DNA of 64,000 nt from assembly GCF_001677475.2 (NCBI RefSeq), contig NZ_CP015229.1; one strand, given 5' to 3'. Positions within the stretch are counted from its first letter, which is position 1; every line of letters begins with the position of its first letter. Shown here piece by piece: positions 49,218 through 62,499 of the stretch. The notes below the pieces were generated by a model. It searched no databases. It had not been told where the DNA came from and saw only the letters and a list, made by a program, of their open reading frames with translations. A program made the position numbers and the translations under genes. The DNA comes from Escherichia coli (GTDB lineage: Bacteria > Pseudomonadota > Gammaproteobacteria > Enterobacterales > Enterobacteriaceae).

Positions 49218-49964
49218 TTACTTCTTAATAAATTGAGGAAGTTTGGATAGATTTTTATACGCTAAAGCTATTGGCCAGATAATACCATTCTGTTTCATAG
49301 CGCGAATATCTTCCATTGATTTATTGATCATGGAAGATGCTGAGCGATTGCTAATTCCACCAACACGCATTTTCACTAATACTTTTGGTAAGTAAGCTAT
49401 TGAAATACGCTGTTTTAAAATATAACGTAATAATGAGTCATAATCAGCAGATATTCGGTAATCTAATGAAAAACAACCAAACTCACTATAACAATCGCGT
49501 TTCATATAAAATGATGGGTGTGGCGGCATCCAACCTAGTTTCATCTTCAAACGGCTAAATGAGCCACTCTTCCATAATCTAATACGTTTAGTCGTATCAT
49601 TTTGGGCAACATACTCCAAATCACCATAAACAGCATCACACCCTGAACTTTCAAATGTTTTTACTATATCTGCAATAGCATCGTCATAAGCAAGTAAGTC
49701 ATCAGAGTGCAAAAATCCAATTATATCACCAGAAGCTGCTTGAATACCTTTATTCAGTGCATCATAAATACCATTGTCGGGTTCGCAAATGATTGTTGAA
49801 ACTCTTGTACATTTACTCTTGATTAGCTCTATTGTATTATCTTTCGATGCTCCATCTACAACTATATATTCAATATCTGAATGCGTTTGTTTTTCCAGAG
49901 AGAGTAATGTATCAAGAAGCGTTTTTTCACTATTATAAGTTGCTGTGATAATTGAAATCCGCAT
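49218..49964 (-). CDS. Glycosyltransferase, family 2
   Basis: 248 aa MRISIITATYNSEKTLLDTLLSLEKQTHSDIEYIVVDGASKDNT... (GT-A fold). Confidence 0.8.
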   Translation of the reverse strand: MRISIITATYNSEKTLLDTLLSLEKQTHSDIEYIVVDGASKDNTIELIKSKCTRVSTIICEPDNGIYDALNKGIQAASGDIIGFLHSDDLLAYDDAIADIVKTFESSGCDAVYGDLEYVAQNDTTKRIRLWKSGSFSRLKMKLGWMPPHPSFYMKRDCYSEFGCFSLDYRISADYDSLLRYILKQRISIAYLPKVLVKMRVGGISNRSASSMINKSMEDIRAMKQNGIIWPIALAYKNLSKLPQFIKK

Positions 49965-51370
49965 TAGTATCCAACTCCAGAAGAAGAAACTCTTATAACA
50001 TCATCCTCTTCCAAGTAGACTCCTGATCTAACCTCAATTATTTCAAGTGGGATCTTGCCAGGATTTTCAATGGCATGTGGAACACCAACAGGTATATATG
50101 TTGATTCATTTTCTGAAACAAGATAAGTTTTCTCCTCAAGATGAACTTTAGCTGTCCCCGAAACAACAATCCAATGTTCAGTACGATGGTAATGGATCTG
50201 CTTAGCGGTAATGTGACCCGGTAATACAATCACATGTTTAACCTGAAAGCGTTGCCCTTCAGCTATAGTGTCATGACTGCCCCAAGGACGAAAAATTTCC
50301 CGATGTTGTAAATATTCTGTTCGATTATTCTTTTTAAGCTGAGCTACGATGTTTTTAACTTGCTGAACTTTATCTTTATGAGCAACTAATACTGCATCTT
50401 TCGTTTCAACGACAACCAAATCCTTTACGCCCACGGCACCAATAAGTCTATGCTGCGAATAAAGATAACTATCTGTAGCATCCTCAACCAAAACATCACC
50501 ACGAATGGCATTGCCGCTTTGGTCTTTTGAACTTATTTCCCACAGCGCAGACCATGACCCAACATCACTCCATTGCGCATCCAATGGTACGACTACAGCT
50601 TCTGCTGTTTTTTCCATAACGGCATAGTCGATTGACTCTTCAGGGCAGCAAGAAAAAGAAGAATTATCCAAGCGGATAAAATCTAAATCTTGAGTCGAGG
50701 AAGCTAAGGATTGCTGACAACTCTCTAGAATATCTGGACGGAATTTTTTTAGTTCATCGATGAATACAGATGCTCTGAACATAAACATTCCACTATTCCA
50801 AAGATAACCGCCATCTGACAAATACCGCTGAGCTAATTCTAGCTCTGGCTTTTCAACAAAAGCTGCAACTTTATAACCTTGCCCACTAAGTGGATCACCT
50901 GACTTAATATAGCCATACCCTGTCTCTGGAGCTGTTGGAACAATGCCAAATGTGACCAACTTACCTTGCTGCGCAAACTCCTTCGCGGCCAAAACTGCTG
51001 TAATGAAACTATTCTCATCCTGAATTTCATGGTCAGCCGCAAGAACTAAAAGTATAGGATCCTCTCCACTTGCCGTTGCCTGAAGCGCTGCAAGGGCTAC
51101 AGCTGGTGCCGTATTGCGCCCAACAGGCTCAAGCAAAATCCCACTATGCTTTAAACCAACTTTACGTAATTGTTCAGCAACGATGAAACGATGTGATTCA
51201 TTACAAATGATCAAAGCAGGATTGTGTTCAACCTTTTCTAGCCGTCGCATAGTCTCTTGCAACATAGTTAAGCGGCTATTTAAAGACAGAAATTGTTTCG
51301 GATAAAGTGTACGTGAAAGAGGCCATAATCTGGTACCAGATCCACCGGCCATGACAACGGGAAGTAGCAT
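49964..51370 (-). CDS. manC: Mannose-1-phosphate guanylyltransferase / mannose-6-phosphate isomerase
   Basis: 468 aa [28 protein letters not shown]... with C-terminal cupin. Confidence 0.92.
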   Translation of the reverse strand: MLLPVVMAGGSGTRLWPLSRTLYPKQFLSLNSRLTMLQETMRRLEKVEHNPALIICNESHRFIVAEQLRKVGLKHSGILLEPVGRNTAPAVALAALQATASGEDPILLVLAADHEIQDENSFITAVLAAKEFAQQGKLVTFGIVPTAPETGYGYIKSGDPLSGQGYKVAAFVEKPELELAQRYLSDGGYLWNSGMFMFRASVFIDELKKFRPDILESCQQSLASSTQDLDFIRLDNSSFSCCPEESIDYAVMEKTAEAVVVPLDAQWSDVGSWSALWEISSKDQSGNAIRGDVLVEDATDSYLYSQHRLIGAVGVKDLVVVETKDAVLVAHKDKVQQVKNIVAQLKKNNRTEYLQHREIFRPWGSHDTIAEGQRFQVKHVIVLPGHITAKQIHYHRTEHWIVVSGTAKVHLEEKTYLVSENESTYIPVGVPHAIENPGKIPLEIIEVRSGVYLEEDDVIRVSSSGVGY

Positions 51371-51375
51371 ATCTA

Positions 51376-51837
51376 TTACCTTGATATAAAATAATTTTTG
51401 GTATATTGATGAACTGTAGTGCTATTAAGCAACGTTACTACATCAAACCACTTGTAGGAATTATGCTGAATCGTTGGTAGGCGAAGTTGCTGCGGATTAA
51501 TTTGAATTTCATATCCATGCACTACGTAGTGTGTAGAAAAATCTAGTTCAGAAAAATTGTCATTGTAAAAGTGTTCATACACACCAAGAAATATGGCCTC
51601 ACCAAGACTAGTTTGAACGCCTAACTCTTCATATGTGATCCTTTTAAAAGCATCCTCGAATGACTCGTCCTTAAAAATTCGCCCTCCAGGCACAAACCAA
51701 TAATTTTTTGCGGGGCGATTCAGGCGCTGCCCAAGCAGCGCCTCTCCTTTATCATTTCTAATTATGAGGTCAATCGAGATTAGAGGAGTATGCTTGACTA
51801 TTGTTTTAAATAACTCATATTCTAATCTCTTTTTCAT
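51376..51837 (-). CDS. gmm: GDP-mannose mannosyl hydrolase (Nudix)
   Basis: 153 aa Nudix box GGRIFKDESFEDAFKRITYEELG. Confidence 0.88.
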   Translation of the reverse strand: MKKRLEYELFKTIVKHTPLISIDLIIRNDKGEALLGQRLNRPAKNYWFVPGGRIFKDESFEDAFKRITYEELGVQTSLGEAIFLGVYEHFYNDNFSELDFSTHYVVHGYEIQINPQQLRLPTIQHNSYKWFDVVTLLNSTTVHQYTKNYFISR

Positions 51838-51839
51838 AA

Positions 51840-52805
51840 CTATCCCCGAAAAGAATCAATATTCTCAAGAAACCATTGATATGTTAATGATAGACCTTCA
51901 TGTAAATTATAGCGATGTAGCCAGCCCAAGTTTTTGAGTCGGGTAACGTCCATAAGCTTTCGCGGGGTGCCATCTGGTTTGGTCGCGTCAAAAACAATTT
52001 TTCCTTGATAACCCACTACAGAAGCCATTGTTTCAGCCATTTCACGTATAGAACAATCCACCCCCGTACCAACATTAATATGAGATAACATTGGTTGTGT
52101 ATTTTGTTGATAGATTGTGTCCTCTAACTCCATCACATGAACCGAGGCAGCAGCCATATCATCAACATATAAAAACTCACGCATCGGTGTTCCCGTGCCC
52201 CAGACAATAACTTCTTGTGCACCACTTTCTTTTGCCTCATGGAATCTACGCATAAGCGCCGGAATAACATGGGAGTTTTCAGGATGGAAGTTATCATTCG
52301 AACCATAAAGATTAGTCGGCATTACACTTCTATAATCGCGACCATATTGACGATTATAAGACTCACATAATTTTATGCCCGCAATCTTAGCAATTGCGTA
52401 TGGCTCATTAGTTGGCTCAAGTATGCCCGTCAAAAGTGCAGACTCTTTCATCGGCTGCTCTGCAAATTTTGGATAAATGCAGCTAGAGCCTAAAAAAAGT
52501 AATTTTTGAATTCCAACCTTGTGAGCTGAATGTATAATATTACTCTCAATCATGAGATTCTGATAAATGAATTCTGCTGGAAATGTATTATTGGCATAAA
52601 TACCACCTACTTTTGCCGCAGCAAGATAAACCTGATCAACCCTCTCTCTCTCAAAAAATGCCTCAACATCCTTCTGCACGGTCAGATCGAGTTCTTTGTG
52701 TGTTTTAACCACTAACTCGATATCATCACGCAGCGATAATTGTCGGCAAATAGCAGAGCCAACCATGCCCTGGTGCCCAGCAACATATACTCTTTTCTTT
52801 ATCAT
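51840..52805 (-). CDS. fcl: GDP-L-fucose synthase
   Basis: 321 aa [23 protein letters not shown]... Confidence 0.93.
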
Positions 52806-52808
52806 GTA

Positions 52809-53942
52809 TTAACGCTCCAGAGAAACCGAAACATCATAACCATGGCTTTTAAGAAGTGCATGTTGTTTCGCTTTTAACAAATCGCTAGCAACCATTTCTG
52901 CACACATCTCTTCAACTGTAATCTCTGGTTCCCAGCCTAATAGATTTTTTGCTTTTGCAGGGTCACCTAAGAGTGTTTCAACTTCAGCAGGACGGAAATA
53001 ACGAGGATCAACCCGAACTATAACGTCTCCAACATTTACACCAATAGCACAATCGGAAACTTTATTAACTACTGTGGCTATCTCATCTACACCCTCACCA
53101 GTGAATTCAAGTTCAAGTCCGACTTCTTTAGCAGCCATACGGACAAATTCACGCACAGATATCTGTTTACCTGTGGCGATGACAAAATCCTCTGGATGAT
53201 CTTGCTGAAGCATCATCCATTGCATGCGAACATAATCTTTAGCGTGTCCCCAGTCACGCAACGAATCCAGATTACCCAAATATAAGCATTGTTCGATCCC
53301 CTGAGAAATATTAGCTATTGCACGAGTAATTTTACGAGTAACAAAAGTTTCTCCACGGCGTGGCGATTCATGGTTAAAAAGAATACCATTACAAGCATAT
53401 ATACCATAAGATTCACGGTAGTTAACTGTTATCCAGTAAGCATACATCTTAGCTACAGCATAAGGCGAACGCGGGTAGAATGGAGTTGTTTCACGCTGAG
53501 GAATCTCTTGCACTAAACCAAAAAGTTCTGAAGTAGATGCTTGATAGAAACGTGTTTTTTTCTCCAGCCCACAGATTCGTATTGCTTCTAATAAACGTAA
53601 TGTACCTATTGCATCTACATCTGCTGTATATTCTGGTGACTCGAATGATACTGCGACATGGGATTGTGCACCAAGGTTATAAATTTCATCCGGTTGAATT
53701 TCTTGGATTAAACGGATCAGATTCGATGTATCTGTTAAATCCCCATAGTGTAAAATAAAATTAGGCTCATCAACGAATCGTGATTGATATATATGATCAA
53801 TTCTATCAGTGTTAAATGACGATGCTCGGCGTTTTATACCATGTACTTCATAACCTTTTTCAATAAGAAATTCAGCAAGATATGAACCATCTTGTCCAGT
53901 TACGCCTGTGATAAATGCAACTTTTTTATTCATTTTAATCAT
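52809..53942 (-). CDS. gmd: GDP-mannose 4,6-dehydratase (true start may be 9 nt downstream, at [10 protein letters not shown])
   Basis: 377 aa; [19 protein letters not shown]... SDR-type dehydratase. Confidence 0.95.
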
Positions 53943-53951
53943 GTTATGTTC

Positions 53952-54983
53952 CTAAATATTCAACTCATTATAAACTTTAATCGTTTCATTAACACATTTT
54001 GACCATGAAAATTTTTGCGCCTGCAGTAAACCTCTTTCGATCATAACATTTCTTTTTAAATTAACTAATTCTAAAGCTTCTTTTAACGTAAACTCATTAA
54101 TATCATCAATATAAATAGGCGCATTCCCCCCTACTTCCGGCAACGAGGATGTGTTTGCACAAATAACTGGACATCCGGCCTGCATAGCTTCTAGGACAGG
54201 TATTCCAAACCCCTCATAACTGGAAGGGTAAACAAGTGCATATGCAGTATTATACTGTATATTTAAATCTTCATTACTCAAAAATGTAAAATGTTCATAT
54301 CTATTTTTTAAATATTTTTCAAGGAGTTCTCTTTCATATTTTTTAAGCGAGCCTCCGCCTACAATTGTAAGCTTTAAGCCATGTAATTTCCCTACAGCTT
54401 TGACTGCAAGAACGAAATTTTTATAACCTTCTCTGGCACCGACAAACAAAACTGAATTATTTACTCTCATATCAGATATGTTAGAAATATGTTTATATGA
54501 TGGGGATACACCATTATAAATCACTCTAATTTTATCTTCACTAATTGGACAGTACTTAAGTAAATCTCTAGCAGTGTTGTTTGAAATACAAATTACGATA
54601 TCACTATTCTTGATAGCATGATATTTTTGAAGAGAATGAATAAATTTTGACATTCCTCCCCTGTATTTTTCATAGGTAAAATCATGAACAGTTGTAACAT
54701 TTTTCACATTCAAATTAGGATTTTTATGAACTCGATAATAACTTGAGTGTAAAACCCTAGTTTTAATATCACTTACATTTCTATATCTTTCTAAAATTCT
54801 TGGCTCACGATATTGCAACTTTAAGTCACTTGTATCAAACTCAAATTCTTTATTTTTATACAATAGAATTTCAGCTTGGTAATTTGATTTCACCATTCCT
54901 TGGATCAACTCATTAAAGTATACACTTATTCCACCAAATGATTGGAGATTATAAATAATCCCATCGATAGTTACCATTATCAT
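53952..54983 (-). CDS. Glycosyltransferase, family 4 (GT-B)
   Basis: 343 aa with EGFGIPVLEAMQAGCPVI motif. Confidence 0.82.
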   Translation of the reverse strand: MIMVTIDGIIYNLQSFGGISVYFNELIQGMVKSNYQAEILLYKNKEFEFDTSDLKLQYREPRILERYRNVSDIKTRVLHSSYYRVHKNPNLNVKNVTTVHDFTYEKYRGGMSKFIHSLQKYHAIKNSDIVICISNNTARDLLKYCPISEDKIRVIYNGVSPSYKHISNISDMRVNNSVLFVGAREGYKNFVLAVKAVGKLHGLKLTIVGGGSLKKYERELLEKYLKNRYEHFTFLSNEDLNIQYNTAYALVYPSSYEGFGIPVLEAMQAGCPVICANTSSLPEVGGNAPIYIDDINEFTLKEALELVNLKRNVMIERGLLQAQKFSWSKCVNETIKVYNELNI

Positions 54984-56236
54984 CGCCCTCGCAAGGTAAT
55001 ACGTTCGATTAGAACGAACAATATCAAAAAGAAGATCAGTAACAATACATATGCAGGCCCAGAAAAATAAGTTCCAAATGAAGGTGAAATGAGAATTATA
55101 GAAAGCAAAAAATAGGATGCAGAGTTCGTAATTACTTTTGCATTAAACATTTTAAGCTTAGCAAAAATATAGCCATAAAAGATATTCATAGGTGAAAGAA
55201 AAGTTAAAATGACCAGTCCAACATATCCATAATCAACAAAATTATCCATCCCTTTTGAAAAAGCAGGTGTATGCCCCGACTCTGCAGCTCCTGGATAATA
55301 GATTTCATTTACATGCAGAAATCCATATACAAAAGGTTTATCAGGAAACAAACCTCTCGGTATATAAGACCAAAACTGGCTGAAATAGACTGTGCCATTG
55401 AAAAATTTAACCACACCTTTATCAATATCTTGCAGCAAATAAATACTGTTTTGATACTGGTCAAAATAAGACAATACTACATCGACATTCATATTTCCAA
55501 TAGCTAAAAATAAATTATAGAGAATGGCACACGCTGCCAGAGGTGTAACTAAAATCAGGCCAAATTTTAGAAATCTAGATTTATTAAGACTTAACACTGC
55601 AAGATAAAAAATCGCAAATGAAAGAATAAAGGTTTTCGATCCAAGAAAAAAAACCAAGGTACAATAGAATATCGCGCATAAAAATAATTTTATTTCCGAG
55701 CGTAAAGCCAACGCTCTAGAAAAATAAGATACTGAAAGCATACTTAAAGAAAAGGCATACAAAAAACCATTACCTTCTCGATAGTTTTGATAACCATCCC
55801 TGGGATTCGTCAACCATCCAGAAATACCTATTTCTGACTTTGAAGAAAGAAGAACAAATAATGTAACAAACAGAACCAATGTAATATTTGATATTCTTTT
55901 TAATTTTGTATGCGAAATTAAGCAAGTTAAATAGCTCTCTCTATTTTTGAATATTATATTAAAAATAAAATAAAATAAAATTATAGATAAAACACCCACA
56001 AAAGAGTATATGTTATATATGAATAAAGCCTCATTATAATATTGATTTAACGCAAAGTCTGAACCATAGAAAAGAGGGGCCAGAATATTTTCCAATAGAA
56101 AAACCGGGAATAAAATAATGGCGCAAATGGTAAAGGGATTGATAATTGTAAGTCTTAGCGTTTTCGTCGCTAATAAAGAAAAAGAAAAATATAGTACTAC
56201 AGCGAGTGTAACATTTAAACAATATATTATTACCAC
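54980..56236 (-). CDS. wzy: Putative O-antigen polymerase Wzy
   Basis: 418 aa, about 10-12 predicted TM helices with a large loop; position inside the O-antigen cluster; very AT-rich. Confidence 0.7.
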   Translation of the reverse strand: MVIIYCLNVTLAVVLYFSFSLLATKTLRLTIINPFTICAIILFPVFLLENILAPLFYGSDFALNQYYNEALFIYNIYSFVGVLSIILFYFIFNIIFKNRESYLTCLISHTKLKRISNITLVLFVTLFVLLSSKSEIGISGWLTNPRDGYQNYREGNGFLYAFSLSMLSVSYFSRALALRSEIKLFLCAIFYCTLVFFLGSKTFILSFAIFYLAVLSLNKSRFLKFGLILVTPLAACAILYNLFLAIGNMNVDVVLSYFDQYQNSIYLLQDIDKGVVKFFNGTVYFSQFWSYIPRGLFPDKPFVYGFLHVNEIYYPGAAESGHTPAFSKGMDNFVDYGYVGLVILTFLSPMNIFYGYIFAKLKMFNAKVITNSASYFLLSIILISPSFGTYFSGPAYVLLLIFFLILFVLIERITLRGR

Positions 56237-57062: not shown

Positions 57063-57773
57063 TCACTTATTTTTCATAGCAATATATTTTAATCTTAATT
57101 CTTTAATTAATGTCTTTACTTTACTATCAGTGGAATACTCAATATTAAACGTGCCAGAGACTCCTCTTATTTTGGGAATAGTTGTTCCAATAACTCCTTT
57201 TAATTTATTATTTTTAATTTGCTCAAAAAAAATGTGTTCTAAATAAACACCATCAAGGTCACGCACAGATTTATAAGAATTAGCAAAAAAGTCCCAATAT
57301 ATTTTTTTATTTACAACATAAAATCTTGTATCAATCATATTTTCATTCAGAAAAGGAACTGGTATAAAAAAAGCTTTACCATTGAATGCATTTATACATT
57401 GCTTATAATTATCGACGTATAGTTTTGATGTTATTTTTGCAAAACTTTCAGCATTAGACAAATAGCGGCTATTCATTAATGCATACTCAATTATTTCACC
57501 CTCTCCGTAACCTTTACCATAAGATTGAACACTTTCTATATCATTTTTGAAATGTATTATCTCGATCGAATCTTTATTAAGTATTTGTTTATCATTATGA
57601 ATATCTTTCGTCAAATCATAATCACTACCATCACATATTACTATAGAATCAGCATTCTTTGACAACTCTCTTATCGCTTTCAATGTATGTAATAATCTTG
57701 AATTTTCATCAGAAAGATTTGTAAGAGGAGCATTAGGTGAGATACAAGAAGTCACTAATACTGGGATTTTCAT
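57063..57773 (-). CDS. Putative O-antigen glycosyltransferase, family unassigned (236 aa from MKIPVLVTS)
   Basis: ATG overlaps the wzx stop (ATGA); the tracker ORF extends 46 codons further, into wzx; no recognisable GT2/GT4 signature. Confidence 0.55.
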   Translation of the reverse strand: MKIPVLVTSCISPNAPLTNLSDENSRLLHTLKAIRELSKNADSIVICDGSDYDLTKDIHNDKQILNKDSIEIIHFKNDIESVQSYGKGYGEGEIIEYALMNSRYLSNAESFAKITSKLYVDNYKQCINAFNGKAFFIPVPFLNENMIDTRFYVVNKKIYWDFFANSYKSVRDLDGVYLEHIFFEQIKNNKLKGVIGTTIPKIRGVSGTFNIEYSTDSKVKTLIKELRLKYIAMKNK

Positions 57774-59014
57774 TTTTTCTTTTCCAGCCTCAACGAAATT
57801 AACATTAGTATAAAATAATCGACGGTGACTCTTGCGCTCCAAGCATAAGCCACACCTGCTACAGAAAAATACATAATTGAAAAATATAAAACCAGCAGAT
57901 ATGGAATACATTCAACAAGATGAATGAGCCCCGTAATATTTGCATAACCTTTCGATTGGATTTGAGCAAATGGAACTTGAGCAAGAGAGTTGAATACAAA
58001 ACCTACTAATAATATTTGAAATATATAAGGACTCTCAGTGCTATATTGTTTTCCAAGCCATAAAGTTATAATATCACCAGCCTTCAAAGAAAACATAATA
58101 GCTATAACTATACTAGTTACACTTATTAATAACGTAGCCTCTTTTATTATTTTTCTCCGCTCATCTTTTGTATTATTCTTGCATAGAGCAGGAAAAACTG
58201 TCCTTGCTATAGTTGTCGGTAATATAAGTAACTTTGAAATTGCATCTGCAGGAGCAATATATAACGAAGCTTTAGCGGGGCCAACTGCATTTGATAAGAT
58301 AAATCGATCAATATTTGTAAGCAATGGGTTAATTATACTACTAATACTCGCCCATCCTCCAAAACTTAATAGTGCTTTTGTTTTACTTAGACTAAAATCC
58401 ATTGTAAGCCTATTATTTCTAAAAACAAAGAACACGCTTAAAAGAGCACCAACTATTCTCGCAATCACCAATCCCAAAGTAGCATTAAGCAAACCAACAT
58501 TTCCATGAATGAAAATAACTGGTAGTAGCGCAGTTAACACACCTGTAATTGTTTTTTGTACATTCAATAATTTGAACTTTTCATATCCTTCTAATATCCC
58601 CCAACAAACCATATTAAGAAGATAAAATGGCAGACAGTAGGATAAAATACTTATAGCATATGCAACACTTTCAGTTTGTTCCGGACCACTAATTAAGGAT
58701 GCAATCTTATGGTCGCAGTAATAAAAAATTACGGCTACAACAACACCAATAGATAATGTTAATAAAAATGATGTTGTAATTATTTGACTGGTTGCCTTTT
58801 TGTCGTTTTTATTTAATGATATTTCACGCACAACGGCTCGGGAAAGTCCGAGATCAAATATACTTGCGTATCCAACTATTGTAAAAAACATTAAAAAAAA
58901 GCCAAAGTTAGTTATTCCTAACTCCCTTGCCAAATACCCCATCGCAGGTATTGACAATAAAGTTGGGATTGCATACCCAACCAAATTTATTAAACTATTT
59001 ATTTTAATACTCAT
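57770..59014 (-). CDS. wzx: O-antigen flippase Wzx
   Basis: 414 aa, 12-TM polysaccharide-transporter-like, MSIKINSLINLVGYAIPTLLSIPAMGYLAR... Confidence 0.85.
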   Translation of the reverse strand: MSIKINSLINLVGYAIPTLLSIPAMGYLARELGITNFGFFLMFFTIVGYASIFDLGLSRAVVREISLNKNDKKATSQIITTSFLLTLSIGVVVAVIFYYCDHKIASLISGPEQTESVAYAISILSYCLPFYLLNMVCWGILEGYEKFKLLNVQKTITGVLTALLPVIFIHGNVGLLNATLGLVIARIVGALLSVFFVFRNNRLTMDFSLSKTKALLSFGGWASISSIINPLLTNIDRFILSNAVGPAKASLYIAPADAISKLLILPTTIARTVFPALCKNNTKDERRKIIKEATLLISVTSIVIAIMFSLKAGDIITLWLGKQYSTESPYIFQILLVGFVFNSLAQVPFAQIQSKGYANITGLIHLVECIPYLLVLYFSIMYFSVAGVAYAWSARVTVDYFILMLISLRLEKKK

Positions 59015-59031
59015 TTTTTAATTATCTTTTG

Positions 59032-59574
59032 TCAATAATTATTTTGTATAAATGGAGTGCCCAAACAATCTTTTTGTGATAAAAGAGGTTCTTTGTATAA
59101 TTGCCAATCTATGTTAAGTAAAGCATCATTCCAAATGATACATTTCTCATGTTCTTTTGAGTAAAAATTATTGGTCTTATACAATATTTCTGAACCTTCT
59201 TCTTTTACATAAAAACCATGTGCAAATCCCTCAGGGATCCACAACTGGCGCTTATTCTCAGCAGATAAATTCACCCCAACCCACTTGCCAAAAGTAGGTG
59301 ACGATTTACGAATATCAACCGCAACATCAAAAACCTCACCAACAACGCAACGTACCAATTTCCCTTGCGCATAAGGTTCTAACTGATAATGCAGCCCGCG
59401 TAAAACACCTTTACTAGACTTCGAATGGTTATCCTGGACAAATTCAACCTTACGTCCTACAGCTTCTTCGAATACTTTCTGATTAAAGCTTTCCATAAAG
59501 AAACCACGCTCATCACCAAAAACTTTCGGCTCGAAAATTAACACATCAGGAATTTCTGTTTTAATTACGTTCAT
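59032..59574 (-). CDS. rmlC: dTDP-4-dehydrorhamnose 3,5-epimerase
   Basis: 180 aa MNVIKTEIPDVLIFEPKVFGDERGFFMESF... Confidence 0.95.
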   Translation of the reverse strand: MNVIKTEIPDVLIFEPKVFGDERGFFMESFNQKVFEEAVGRKVEFVQDNHSKSSKGVLRGLHYQLEPYAQGKLVRCVVGEVFDVAVDIRKSSPTFGKWVGVNLSAENKRQLWIPEGFAHGFYVKEEGSEILYKTNNFYSKEHEKCIIWNDALLNIDWQLYKEPLLSQKDCLGTPFIQNNY

Positions 59575-59578
59575 TTTA

Positions 59579-60457
59579 TTAATAACCTTTAATCATTTTC
59601 AGCAGATACTGTCCATAAGCATTTTTTTTCAGCGGCTCCGCTAATGCTTTCACCTGTTCAGCATCAATAAACCCTTTACGGTAAGCAATTTCTTCTGGGC
59701 AGGAAACCTTTAGTCCCTGGCGCTCTTCAATGGTGGCAATGAAGTTGCTTGCTTCAATAAGACTCTGATGTGTCCCCGTATCCAGCCATGCATAACCACG
59801 CCCCATCATGGCAACGGATAAACGCCCCTGTTCCATATAAATACGGTTAATATCGGTAATTTCCAGTTCACCACGGGCAGAAGGCTTAAGGTTTTTCGCC
59901 ATTTCGACAACGTCGTTATCATAGAAATAAAGCCCGGTTACCGCATAATTACTTTTTGGTTGTAGCGGTTTTTCTTCCAGGCAGATCGCCGTACCGTTTT
60001 TATCAAACTCAACGACACCGTAGCGTTCAGGATCATTAACGTGATAGGCAAATACCGTTGCACCACTTTCTTTGTTAACAGCGACATCCATTAACTTCGG
60101 CAGATCATGACCGTAGAAGATATTATCACCAAGAACCAAAGCACAATCATCACCACCGATAAACTCTTCACCGATAATAAACGCCTGCGCAAGCCCATCT
60201 GGAGTCGGTTGCACTTTGTACTGAAGATTTAGCCCCCACTGGCTACCGTCACCCAGCAGTTGTTGAAAACGAGGAGTATCCTGTGGCGTACTAATAATCA
60301 GAATATCGCGAATACCCGCCAACATCAGTGTAGAGAGCGGGTAATAGATCATCGGCTTATCATAAATAGGTAATAGCTGTTTACTGACAGCCATAGTCAC
60401 AGGATAAAGACGTGTACCAGAACCACCCGCTAAAATAATACCTTTACGCGTTTTCAT
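59579..60457 (-). CDS. rmlA: Glucose-1-phosphate thymidylyltransferase
   Basis: 292 aa [42 protein letters not shown]... Confidence 0.97.
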
Positions 60458-60514
60458 TTCATCATTCCTTTTAATTCATCTTGCTCCACCATCACGAACA
60501 AGATGCAAAAACTA

Positions 60515-61414
60515 TTAAATTGCTGTAGTCGTAAATAATTCGTTGAGCATTCGTTTCACACCAACCTGCCACTCAGGCAAGACAAGCGCAAAGTTCTGCT
60601 GAAATTTTTCTGTATTAAGGCGAGAGTTATGTGGACGACGAGCTGGTGTAGGATAGGCTGTTGTTGGTACTGCGTTGAGCTTGTTGAGTGCAAGGGGAAT
60701 ACCTGCTTTGCGCGCCTCTTCAAAAACCAGCGCAGCATAATCGTGCCAGGTTGTGGTACCACTGGCTACCAGATGGTACAAACCTGCGACTTCCGGTTTA
60801 TTCAGTGCCACACGAATAACATGTGCCGTACAATCAGCCAGCAGCTCAGCACCTGTTGGCGCACCAAATTGATCATTTATCACAGCCAGTTCTTCGCGCT
60901 CTTTTGCCAGACGCAACATCGTTTTGGCGAAGTTATTTCCTTTACCTGCGTATACCCAGCTGGTACGGAAAATAAGATGCTTCGCGCAATGTTCCTGTAA
61001 CGCTTTTTCTCCGGCTAACTTGGTTTCACCGTAAACATTTAGCGGTGCGGTTGCATCCGTCTCCAGCCATGGCGTGTCGCCATTTCCAGGGAAGACGTAG
61101 TCAGTTGAGTAATGAATTACCCAAGCCCCAACTTCATTAGCCGCTTTTGCAATTGATTCAACGCTAGTCGCATTGAGTAATTGTGCAAATTCGGGTTCTG
61201 ACTCAGCCTTATCTACTGCGGTGTGAGCCGCAGCATTAACAATAACATCAGGTCGAATTCTTTTGACTGTTTCAGCTACACCTTCAGGATTACTAAAATC
61301 ACCACAATAATCAGTGGAGTGAACATCAAGAGCAATCAAATTACCCAAAGGTGCCAGAGCACGCTGTAGTTCCCAACCTACCTGCCCTGTTTTGCCGAAA
61401 AGGAGGATATTCAT
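60515..61414 (-). CDS. rmlD: dTDP-4-dehydrorhamnose reductase
   Basis: 299 aa [30 protein letters not shown]... Confidence 0.96.
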   Translation of the reverse strand: MNILLFGKTGQVGWELQRALAPLGNLIALDVHSTDYCGDFSNPEGVAETVKRIRPDVIVNAAAHTAVDKAESEPEFAQLLNATSVESIAKAANEVGAWVIHYSTDYVFPGNGDTPWLETDATAPLNVYGETKLAGEKALQEHCAKHLIFRTSWVYAGKGNNFAKTMLRLAKEREELAVINDQFGAPTGAELLADCTAHVIRVALNKPEVAGLYHLVASGTTTWHDYAALVFEEARKAGIPLALNKLNAVPTTAYPTPARRPHNSRLNTEKFQQNFALVLPEWQVGVKRMLNELFTTTAI

Positions 61415-62499
61415 TACTGGCGGCCCTCATAGTTCTGTGCAATCCACGATTGATAGGCACCACTTTTCACATTATCAACCCATTTTGTATTGGACAGGTA
61501 CCATTCCACTGTCTTCCGAATCCCGCTCTCAAACGTTTCCTGCGGTTTCCAGCCCAATTCGCGGCTAATCTTCTCAGCATCAATCGCATAACGGCGATCG
61601 TGTCCCGGGCGGTCGGCAACATAAGTAATTTGCTCACGATAAGATTTCTCTTTCGGTACAATCTCATCCAGCAAATCACAAATAGTAAGCACTACATCGA
61701 TGTTTTTCTTTTCGTTGTGTCCGCCAATATTATAGGTTTCGCCTGCTTTACCTTCAGTAACGACTGTATATAACGCTCGAGCATGATCCTCGACATACAA
61801 CCAATCGCGAATTTGATCCCCTTTACCATAAATAGGTAATGCTTTACCTTCCAGAGCATTCAGAATAACCAATGGAATCAATTTTTCCGGGAAATGATAA
61901 GGGCCATAATTGTTAGAGCAATTAGTCACAATGGTCGGTAAACCATAGGTACGTTTCCACGCGCGGACTAAATGATCGCTGGATGCTTTGGATGCGGAAT
62001 AAGGGCTGCTTGGTGCGTAAGCTGTTGTCTCAGTAAATAAGGGTAATTTTTCTTTATTATTTACTTCGTCAGGATGAGGCAAATCACCATAGACTTCGTC
62101 AGTAGAAATATGATGAAAACGGAAGCTATTTTTCTTGTCGCTATCAAGAGCAGACCAGTAATTGCGAGCGGCTTCCAAAAGGACATAAGTACCAACAATA
62201 TTGGTTTCAATAAATGCCGCAGGGCCTGTAATTGAACGATCCACATGGCTTTCAGCAGCCAGGTGCATCACTGCATCCGGCTGATGCAGAGCAAAAATCC
62301 GCGCCATTGCAGCAGCATCGCAAATATCCGCATGTTCAAAAACATAGCGTTCAGAATCAGAAACATCAGCAAGTGATTCCAGGTTTCCGGCGTACGTTAA
62401 TTTATCGACATTAACAACACTATCCTGCGTATTATTTATAATGTGACGAACTACAGCAGAACCAATAAATCCTGCGCCACCAGTAACAAGTATTTTCAC
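61414..62499 (-). CDS. rmlB: dTDP-glucose 4,6-dehydratase
   Basis: 361 aa [43 protein letters not shown]... Confidence 0.97.

Follow-up and report, generated by a model that had tools for sequence, protein, structure and literature searches.

We conclude that ORF236, the gene immediately downstream of wzx in the Escherichia coli O36 O-antigen cluster, is most likely the gene for a fourth glycosyltransferase of O36; its family is large and uncatalogued, apparently DxD-less, GT-A-like, and linked to wzx. The window analyzed here is a 64,000-nucleotide stretch of E. coli contig NZ_CP015229.1 (assembly GCF_001677475.2); coordinates refer to this window, and those of individual features are collected in Table 1.

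ORF236 is a functional gene of the O36 cluster

The window carries the O36 O-antigen cluster, which we found in 8 of 5,426 complete genomes at 98.3 to 99.6% identity. Its minus-strand gene order is galF, rmlBDAC, wzx, ORF236, GT2 (269 amino acids [aa]), wzy, GT4 (343 aa), gmd, fcl, gmm, manC, GT2 (248 aa), manB, gnd, ugd, and wzz, and ORF236 lies inside the low-GC (∼30%) serotype-specific core. The ORF is real: it is on the minus strand, from an ATG at 57773-57771 to a TGA at 57065-57063, and its translation matches in full the peptide quoted in the original prediction. The longest possible frame at this position is 282 aa, from 57911; we prefer the 236-aa start because the PGAP call and the aligned N termini of homologues agree on it. 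PGAP labels ORF236 a "hypothetical protein," and public annotation of its relatives is mostly of the same kind, with an automatic "GT2 family" label on a few UniRef entries.

The ATG had been predicted to overlap the wzx stop, as indeed it does: on the coding strand, wzx ends in ...GAA AAG AAA AAA TGA (stop at 57772-57770), and the junction reads ATGA. Buttiauxella (L002) and Leclercia (L089) have an equal 4-nucleotide (nt) overlap between wzx and the family gene. The Shine-Dalgarno sequence of ORF236 is weak (GGA 9 nt upstream, GAGG 14 nt upstream) which, together with the ATGA overlap, makes translational coupling to wzx by termination-reinitiation plausible. The overlap by itself is unremarkable, because overlaps are common in the O36 operon: wzy and the GT4 gene share 4 nt (54980-54983), while rmlB/rmlD and manC/wfeY each share 1 nt.

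Two O36 alleles of ORF236 differ by seven synonymous and three nonsynonymous changes; the resulting pN/pS of ∼0.11 is the lowest in the serotype-specific block, albeit from small counts (wzx, 0.34; GT2, 0.37; GT4, 0.26; and wzy, 0.19 in the same allele comparison). This low ratio, 2,299 relatives, retention of invariant residues, and a fold predicted with a pLDDT of 95 argue that ORF236 is neither a chance ORF nor a relic. It is a functional, conserved gene under purifying selection, and the untranslated relic that had been named as an alternative can be set aside.

Other observations concern the history and annotation of the cluster. Synonymous-site difference between the window and another O36 strain (L094) is 1 to 6% from the GT4 gene through wzx and 35 to 46% in rmlC, rmlA, and rmlD; this contrast points to a recombination boundary near the wzx/rmlC junction (59014-59032), and the rml genes have a history other than that of the O36-specific core. 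PGAP calls O36 wzy a "frameshifted" pseudogene in strains E06 and 2014C-3075. The gene reads as one unbroken 418-aa ORF from a GTG start, free of internal stops, in the window (54980-56236), L001 (10734-11990), and L094 (1734-2990), and the flag is probably an annotation artifact of the reference model. In strain E06, gmd (L001, 7364-9687) is interrupted by the IS5-like element ISKpn26, which should cause loss of GDP-fucose synthesis and hence of O36 expression; gmd in the window (52809-53942) is intact and encodes 377 aa.

Table 1. ORF236, its conserved motifs, and neighboring O36 genes in the window
Feature	Position	Strand	Remarks
ORF236	57063..57773	minus	236 codons plus stop; member of uncatalogued GT-A-like family; GC 27.6%
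ATGA overlap	57770..57773	minus	wzx TGA stop and ORF236 ATG; 4 nt in common
C47-D48-G49-S50 motif, after β2	57624..57635	minus	Resembles GT2 "DDGS" nucleotide-binding motif
G86-K87-G88-Y89-G90-E91-G92-E93-I94	57492..57518	minus	Family signature at helix N terminus
K113-x-T115-x-K117...N122, end of β4	57408..57437	minus	Placed by secondary-structure order; usual site of the acidic DxD motif in GT-A enzymes
D148-T149-R150-F151-Y152 motif	57318..57332	minus	β strand
E179 (LEH motif)	57237..57239	minus	323/323 members; candidate catalytic base (putative role)
G204-V-S-G207 motif	57153..57164	minus	
wzx, O36 flippase, 414 aa	57770..59014	minus	Pfam Polysacc_synt/Polysacc_synt_3; PGAP "O36 family O-antigen flippase"
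GT2-family glycosyltransferase, 269 aa	56247..57056	minus	PF00535, E = 7e-19; start 6 nt past ORF236 stop
wzy, O36 polymerase, 418 aa	54980..56236	minus	GTG start
GT4-family glycosyltransferase, 343 aa	53952..54983	minus	Pfam
GT2-family glycosyltransferase, 248 aa	49218..49964	minus	Pfam; between manC and manB (wfeY position)
gmd, fcl, gmm, manC	49964..53942	minus	GDP-L-fucose pathway
rmlC, rmlA, rmlD, rmlB	59032..62499	minus	dTDP-L-rhamnose pathway

ORF236 belongs to a large, uncatalogued family found in polysaccharide loci

When 1.84 billion representative proteins were searched with a profile of the family, 2,299 representatives were recovered at E ≤ 1e-3; at the stricter E ≤ 1e-30 there were 399. 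The 2,299 are clusters at 50% identity, nearly all of them single-domain proteins of 230 to 270 aa, from Proteobacteria, Chlorobi, Bacteroidota, Firmicutes, and Cyanobacteria. Scanning one genome per species located the family in beta-, gamma-, and alphaproteobacteria, Chlorobiaceae, Bacteroidota, Lachnospiraceae and other Clostridia, and Synechococcus. Two members have C-terminal extensions: that of P0148 (558 aa) is ∼330 aa long and has no Pfam match, while that of P0244 is weakly PglD_N-like.

Pfam searches with ORF236 gave only a subthreshold GT2 match (residues 23 to 77; E = 0.19; 12.1 bits against a cutoff of 23.3 bits), and those with 50 relatives returned no consistent family, GT2 reaching E < 1 in one of them; a CK_II_beta match (E = 0.008) and other matches confined to single members were rejected as spurious. 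We found no NCBIfam match to ORF236, no PHROGs match to five diverse family members, and no family match by tblastn in 50,697 phage records. Searches of PDB sequences by phmmer and with the family profile returned spurious matches only, namely, flavoprotein 390 (E = 0.065) and Duffy binding protein (E = 0.13). The family is uncatalogued: it has no Pfam, NCBIfam, or PHROGs model. The suggestion that ORF236 represents a poorly characterized transferase family is thus borne out, in that no curated family covers it and its predicted fold is confidently GT-A-like (see below); the HMM search proposed at that time, run against Pfam families, produced no confident match to a characterized glycosyltransferase family.

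We annotated 14 homologue loci with Pfam, and every one proved to be a polysaccharide or lipopolysaccharide (LPS) cluster. Genes of the GT2, GT4, GT41, and DUF6492 families recur beside the family gene, and further neighbors include GT10 and GT11 genes, MsbA-type ABC transporters, and O-antigen ligase or polymerase genes. The family does not follow any one donor pathway: of 88 loci, ∼20 have gmd/fcl and ∼8 have the complete rml set. Even the closest relatives differ in this respect, with Leclercia-type loci lacking rmlB/C and L091 lacking both pathways. We considered a specific rhamnosyl- or fucosyltransferase role for ORF236 but dropped it because of this weak co-occurrence and the differing pathways of the closest relatives; donor specificity may vary within the family.

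In betaproteobacteria, a ∼295-aa protein of the uncharacterized DUF6492 family recurs immediately upstream of the family gene (e.g., L022, 9093-9980; L031, 9019-9885; and L047, 2551-3450; also ∼20 other Comamonadaceae/Polynucleobacter loci), which suggests that the two enzymes form a conserved pair in loci of the LPS-core type; hhalign detected no profile likeness between DUF6492 and the ORF236 family (E = 0.15 to 0.52). Genes for two conserved proteins without a Pfam match, of ∼336 and ∼253 aa, flank the family gene in loci of the Polynucleobacter type and of Chlorobiaceae (L004, 6976-7986 and 8809-9570; also L010, L011, L014, and L024), next to gmd/fcl and a GT10 fucosyltransferase gene; these are unannotated candidate glycan synthesis enzymes.

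The predicted fold is GT-A-like, and weak profile similarity favors a glycosyltransferase

AlphaFold2, run with a 50-sequence alignment, modeled ORF236 with high confidence (pLDDT, 95.2; pTM, 0.92) as a single Rossmann-like α/β/α domain with a central mixed β-sheet, as in the GT-A superfamily. Structure prediction had been recommended as a means of distinguishing GT-A from GT-B folds, and its outcome was one domain of GT-A type. Inspection of the translation also confirmed the reported absence of the EX7E and HxRRxD motifs. The single-domain model, the lack of a Pfam match, and the missing E-x7-E place ORF236 outside GT4 and the GT-B enzymes; with no Pfam match and no HxRRxD, it is likewise outside GT10 and GT11, genuine members of which are encoded by separate neighboring genes in homologue loci. 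The original prediction that ORF236 lacks the obvious GT2 N-terminal signature holds, in that the Pfam GT2 match stays below the cutoff, but the N terminus has some likeness to GT2: a degenerate GT2-type β1 and an ICDGS motif are present.

Foldseek matched the ORF236 model best to TarI and IspD (TM score, 0.4 to 0.5), while annotated matches in the viral structure library BFVD are mostly GT-A glycosyltransferases; the modeled fold alone cannot separate a glycosyltransferase from a nucleotidyltransferase. Among locally built profiles, only that of GT2 gave a match, weak but sensible: hhalign aligned it with the family profile at E = 0.0027, placing IVICDGS opposite IIiDGgStD, versus E = 0.54 for an RmlA/ManC nucleotidyltransferase profile. 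Single sequences (the GT2 neighbor, RmlA, and DUF6492) gave no signal against the family profile. The two best BFVD matches, A0A6J5KR77 from an uncultured Caudovirales phage and A0A879R3H0 from Synechococcus phage S-SRM01 (TM score, 0.63 to 0.65; 16 to 20% identity), are uncharacterized proteins; going by the models, a very remote branch of the ORF236 fold family may exist in phages.

A nucleotidyltransferase of the NTP:sugar-1-phosphate or alditol-phosphate (cytidylyl or uridylyl) type, activating a precursor, would share the TarI- and IspD-like fold, but we regard this identity for ORF236 as improbable. The glycine-rich GxGxR/K loop of such enzymes is absent after β1, where the sequence is VLVTSCISPNAP (loop TSCISPNAPLT), and none of 50 members matches Pfam NTP_transferase, NTP_transf_3, IspD, or CTP_transf_3. 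The D-G-S motif after β2 is a GT-A feature, and the cluster's own nucleotidyltransferases, RmlA and ManC, already serve the O36 rhamnose and fucose pathways. We therefore favor a glycosyltransferase, given the GT2 profile match, the missing loop, the presence of RmlA and ManC, and the glycosyltransferase shortfall described below.

Conserved residues point to an active site without the canonical DxD motif

We assessed residue conservation across 323 nonredundant family members with 27 to 100% identity. Nearly invariant are R26, D/E48, S/T50, E71, G86-K/R87-G88-x-G90-E91-G92, K113-x-T115-x-K/R117, N122, D148-T149-R150, E179, G204, and G207, and O36 ORF236 keeps every family-invariant residue. 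Position 48 is acidic (D/E) in all 323 members, and S/T50 is found in 322; both lie opposite the GT2 iDGgStD motif in the Pfam and the hhalign alignments. As in GT-A enzymes, β2 ends in an acidic residue of the DDGS type, which is predicted to contact the nucleotide base or ribose.

The acidic DxD motif of GT-A enzymes sits at the end of β4. In ORF236, no GT2-type DxD was found at this point as mapped by predicted secondary-structure order, on which the β4 placement rests (forced global profile alignment was unreliable). The family segment after β4 is K113-x-T115-(G/S/A)-K/R117 (K113 in 322, T115 in 314, K/R117 in 319, and N122 in 318 of 323 members), with no conserved acidic residue. The canonical DxD thus appears to be replaced by K113-x-T115-x-K/R117, and basic residues at this position, along with invariant R26 and K87, suggest that positively charged side chains stand in for a metal at the diphosphate. 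WrtF, a GT-A O-antigen transferase, works without metal (PMC12595478). E179, invariant in all 323 members, or else D148 is likely the general base. There seems to us only a slight chance that ORF236 is an ordinary, highly diverged, metal-dependent GT2 enzyme that looks novel through HMM insensitivity.

O36 synthesis probably calls for a fourth glycosyltransferase

The O36 O unit has a two-residue side-branch, and two-residue backbones are restricted to ABC-dependent serogroups and O20; O36 is not among the serogroups listed with an unexplained glycosyltransferase deficit (PMC7685785). Taken together, these statements imply an O unit of at least five residues and hence at least four transfers after that of WecA. 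Pfam recognizes only three glycosyltransferases in the window; wfeY, whose position the 248-aa GT2 gene occupies, has been assigned the α-L-Fuc-(1→3)-GlcNAc linkage (PMC10606467). The mismatch between at least four transfers and three recognizable enzymes supports ORF236 as the fourth glycosyltransferase, although glucose added by a Gtr system would cancel the deficit.

The family gene is linked to wzx

All relatives with ≥40% identity and examined context lie immediately downstream of wzx, overlapping it by up to 14 nt or following it after a gap of up to 35 nt. More broadly, of 28 loci that carry a Wzx homologue, 16 have the family gene directly beside it (wzx upstream in 12 and downstream in 4), versus 8 of 44 GT2 genes and 3 of 56 GT4 genes in the same loci (together 11 of 100; Fisher P = 1.3e-6), where every locus was centered on the family gene and loci were counted irrespective of phylogeny. 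The pattern is seen in Proteobacteria, Bacteroidota, and Firmicutes. Compared with the Leclercia-type clusters L089 and L090, O36 Wzx shows 39 to 40% identity and ORF236 46 to 48%, and none of the other O36 glycosyltransferases, nor Wzy, is common to these clusters. That wzx and ORF236 are alike while the rest of the cluster differs argues for a gene pair that moves as a module. We also found the family domain fused to a Wzx domain and to a WecA-like domain (P0159 and P0134), each on one contig; these fusions could be indel artifacts, since a 1-nt error at an overlapping junction gives the same result.

Glycosyltransferase genes often lie in the reverse order of action, such that the first in a cluster acts last (PMC7685785), and Wzx is known to prefer its cognate, complete O unit (PMC6436433). 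On these grounds, our proposal is that the residue added by ORF236 comes late and is recognized by the flippase.

A place beside the flippase would also suit a last-step modifier: a nucleotide-dependent transferase of a nonglycosyl or phospho-linked group (sugar-1-phosphate, glycerol- or ribitol-phosphate, or another decoration) that acts on the finished O unit before flipping. Conserved basic residues in the absence of a DxD motif fit such an enzyme, and methyltransferases and acetyltransferases (decoration genes) occur in several homologue loci. We nevertheless think it unlikely that ORF236 has this activity, as genes for CDP-glycerol, CDP-ribitol, or similar donors are absent from the O36 cluster. 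To our knowledge, phosphotransferases of the glycerol- or ribitol-phosphate type have other folds (TagF-like, LicD-like, and Stealth), which are absent among the top fold-search matches listed. In addition, O36 is named in a review for its two-residue side-branch only, rather than for nonsugar substituents (PMC7685785).

Finally, a noncatalytic Wzx partner, i.e., a GT-A-like pseudoenzyme that senses the finished Und-PP-O-unit or a nucleotide and passes the unit to the flippase, would account for the strong cross-phylum wzx adjacency, co-transfer as a module, the Wzx- and WecA-like-domain fusions, and loss of the canonical DxD, but is very hard to credit given ∼20 invariant polar or charged residues in active-site-like motifs across five phyla, 60 of 88 loci with no identifiable Wzx within 10 kb and the family gene beside other glycosyltransferases or MsbA-type transporters, and fusions that occur on one contig each and would be mimicked by a 1-nt junction error.

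A model for ORF236 action

The explanation that we favor, and consider fairly probable, casts ORF236 as the founder of an uncatalogued family: a glycosyltransferase that works in the cytoplasm, probably without metal, and forms a single O36 linkage, which may be the last. The analysis establishes that the gene is real and under purifying selection, together with its fold class, its absence from curated families, its setting in polysaccharide loci, its enrichment beside wzx, and its invariant residues; glycosyltransferase activity, metal independence, residue roles, and pathway position are inferred. In this model, ORF236 would be a soluble protein, probably peripherally associated with the membrane, with the GT-A-like fold of a nucleotide-diphospho-sugar transferase, acting as the fourth glycosyltransferase in O36 O-unit assembly. 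Its GT2-like N-terminal half would bind the NDP-sugar via D48 and S50 of ICDGS; R26, K87, K113, and K/R117 would neutralize the diphosphate in place of an acidic DxD metal site, making the reaction metal independent. With E179 (or D148) as general base, the sugar would be transferred to the Und-PP-linked oligosaccharide at the cytoplasmic face. Coupling to wzx and co-movement with it as a module are the basis for proposing a late role: the residue added may be terminal or a side-branch and would be recognized by the cognate flippase.

A bolder version of this proposal, which we offer as speculation and think rather unlikely to hold in full, is that ORF236 founds a new CAZy family of DxD-less, GT-A-like enzymes that use Lys/Arg in place of metal, and that it forms with its cognate Wzx a mobile two-gene "finish-and-flip" module, coupled genetically and perhaps physically, with the added residue serving as the flippase's signal of completeness. 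If true, this would make the long-standing problem of Wzx substrate recognition more tractable.

Significance and comparison with known systems

Pfam, NCBIfam, and PHROGs all miss this family of ∼2,300 clusters from at least five phyla, which leaves its members labeled "hypothetical" in thousands of polysaccharide loci; glycosyltransferase counts used to match gene clusters to glycan structures would be off by one wherever the family occurs. A characterized ORF236 would complete the O36 pathway and improve prediction of glycan structure from sequence. It would also provide a probably metal-independent GT-A variant for glycoengineering, and its linkage to wzx a natural system for testing flippase recognition. 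O-antigen clusters have repeatedly supplied founders of glycosyltransferase families, including GT99, GT102, GT103, and GT137 (PMC11231755).

Among the known systems closest to ORF236 are GT2-family, GT-A enzymes of O-antigen and capsule synthesis: K4CP, SpsA, WrtF, WfeY, and the neighboring 269-aa GT2 protein. WrtF is a GT-A fucosyltransferase of Rhizobium tropici (PDB 9OMH; PMC12595478), with which ORF236 shares 7% identity. WrtF is a recognizable GT2 enzyme that has a GADD motif and lacks basic residues at the diphosphate, whereas ORF236 has invariant Lys/Arg instead; WrtF acts in O-polysaccharide polymerization, while the proposed role of ORF236 is in Wzx/Wzy-type O-unit assembly. TarI, IspD, GlmU, and RmlA, in turn, have a GxGxR phosphate-binding loop; ORF236 differs in having no such loop, no Pfam match, and no profile likeness (E = 0.54), and the O36 pathway offers no orphan substrate for an enzyme of their type. 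A parallel in gene arrangement is wzx-wbaV of Salmonella group B, in which the gene for a side-branch abequosyltransferase lies beside that of a flippase preferring the abequose-bearing unit. As in that pair, a glycosyltransferase gene (predicted, for ORF236) is located directly downstream of wzx. WbaV, however, belongs to an ordinary, catalogued glycosyltransferase family, whereas the wzx-linked ORF236 represents one conserved, uncatalogued family that recurs across phyla.
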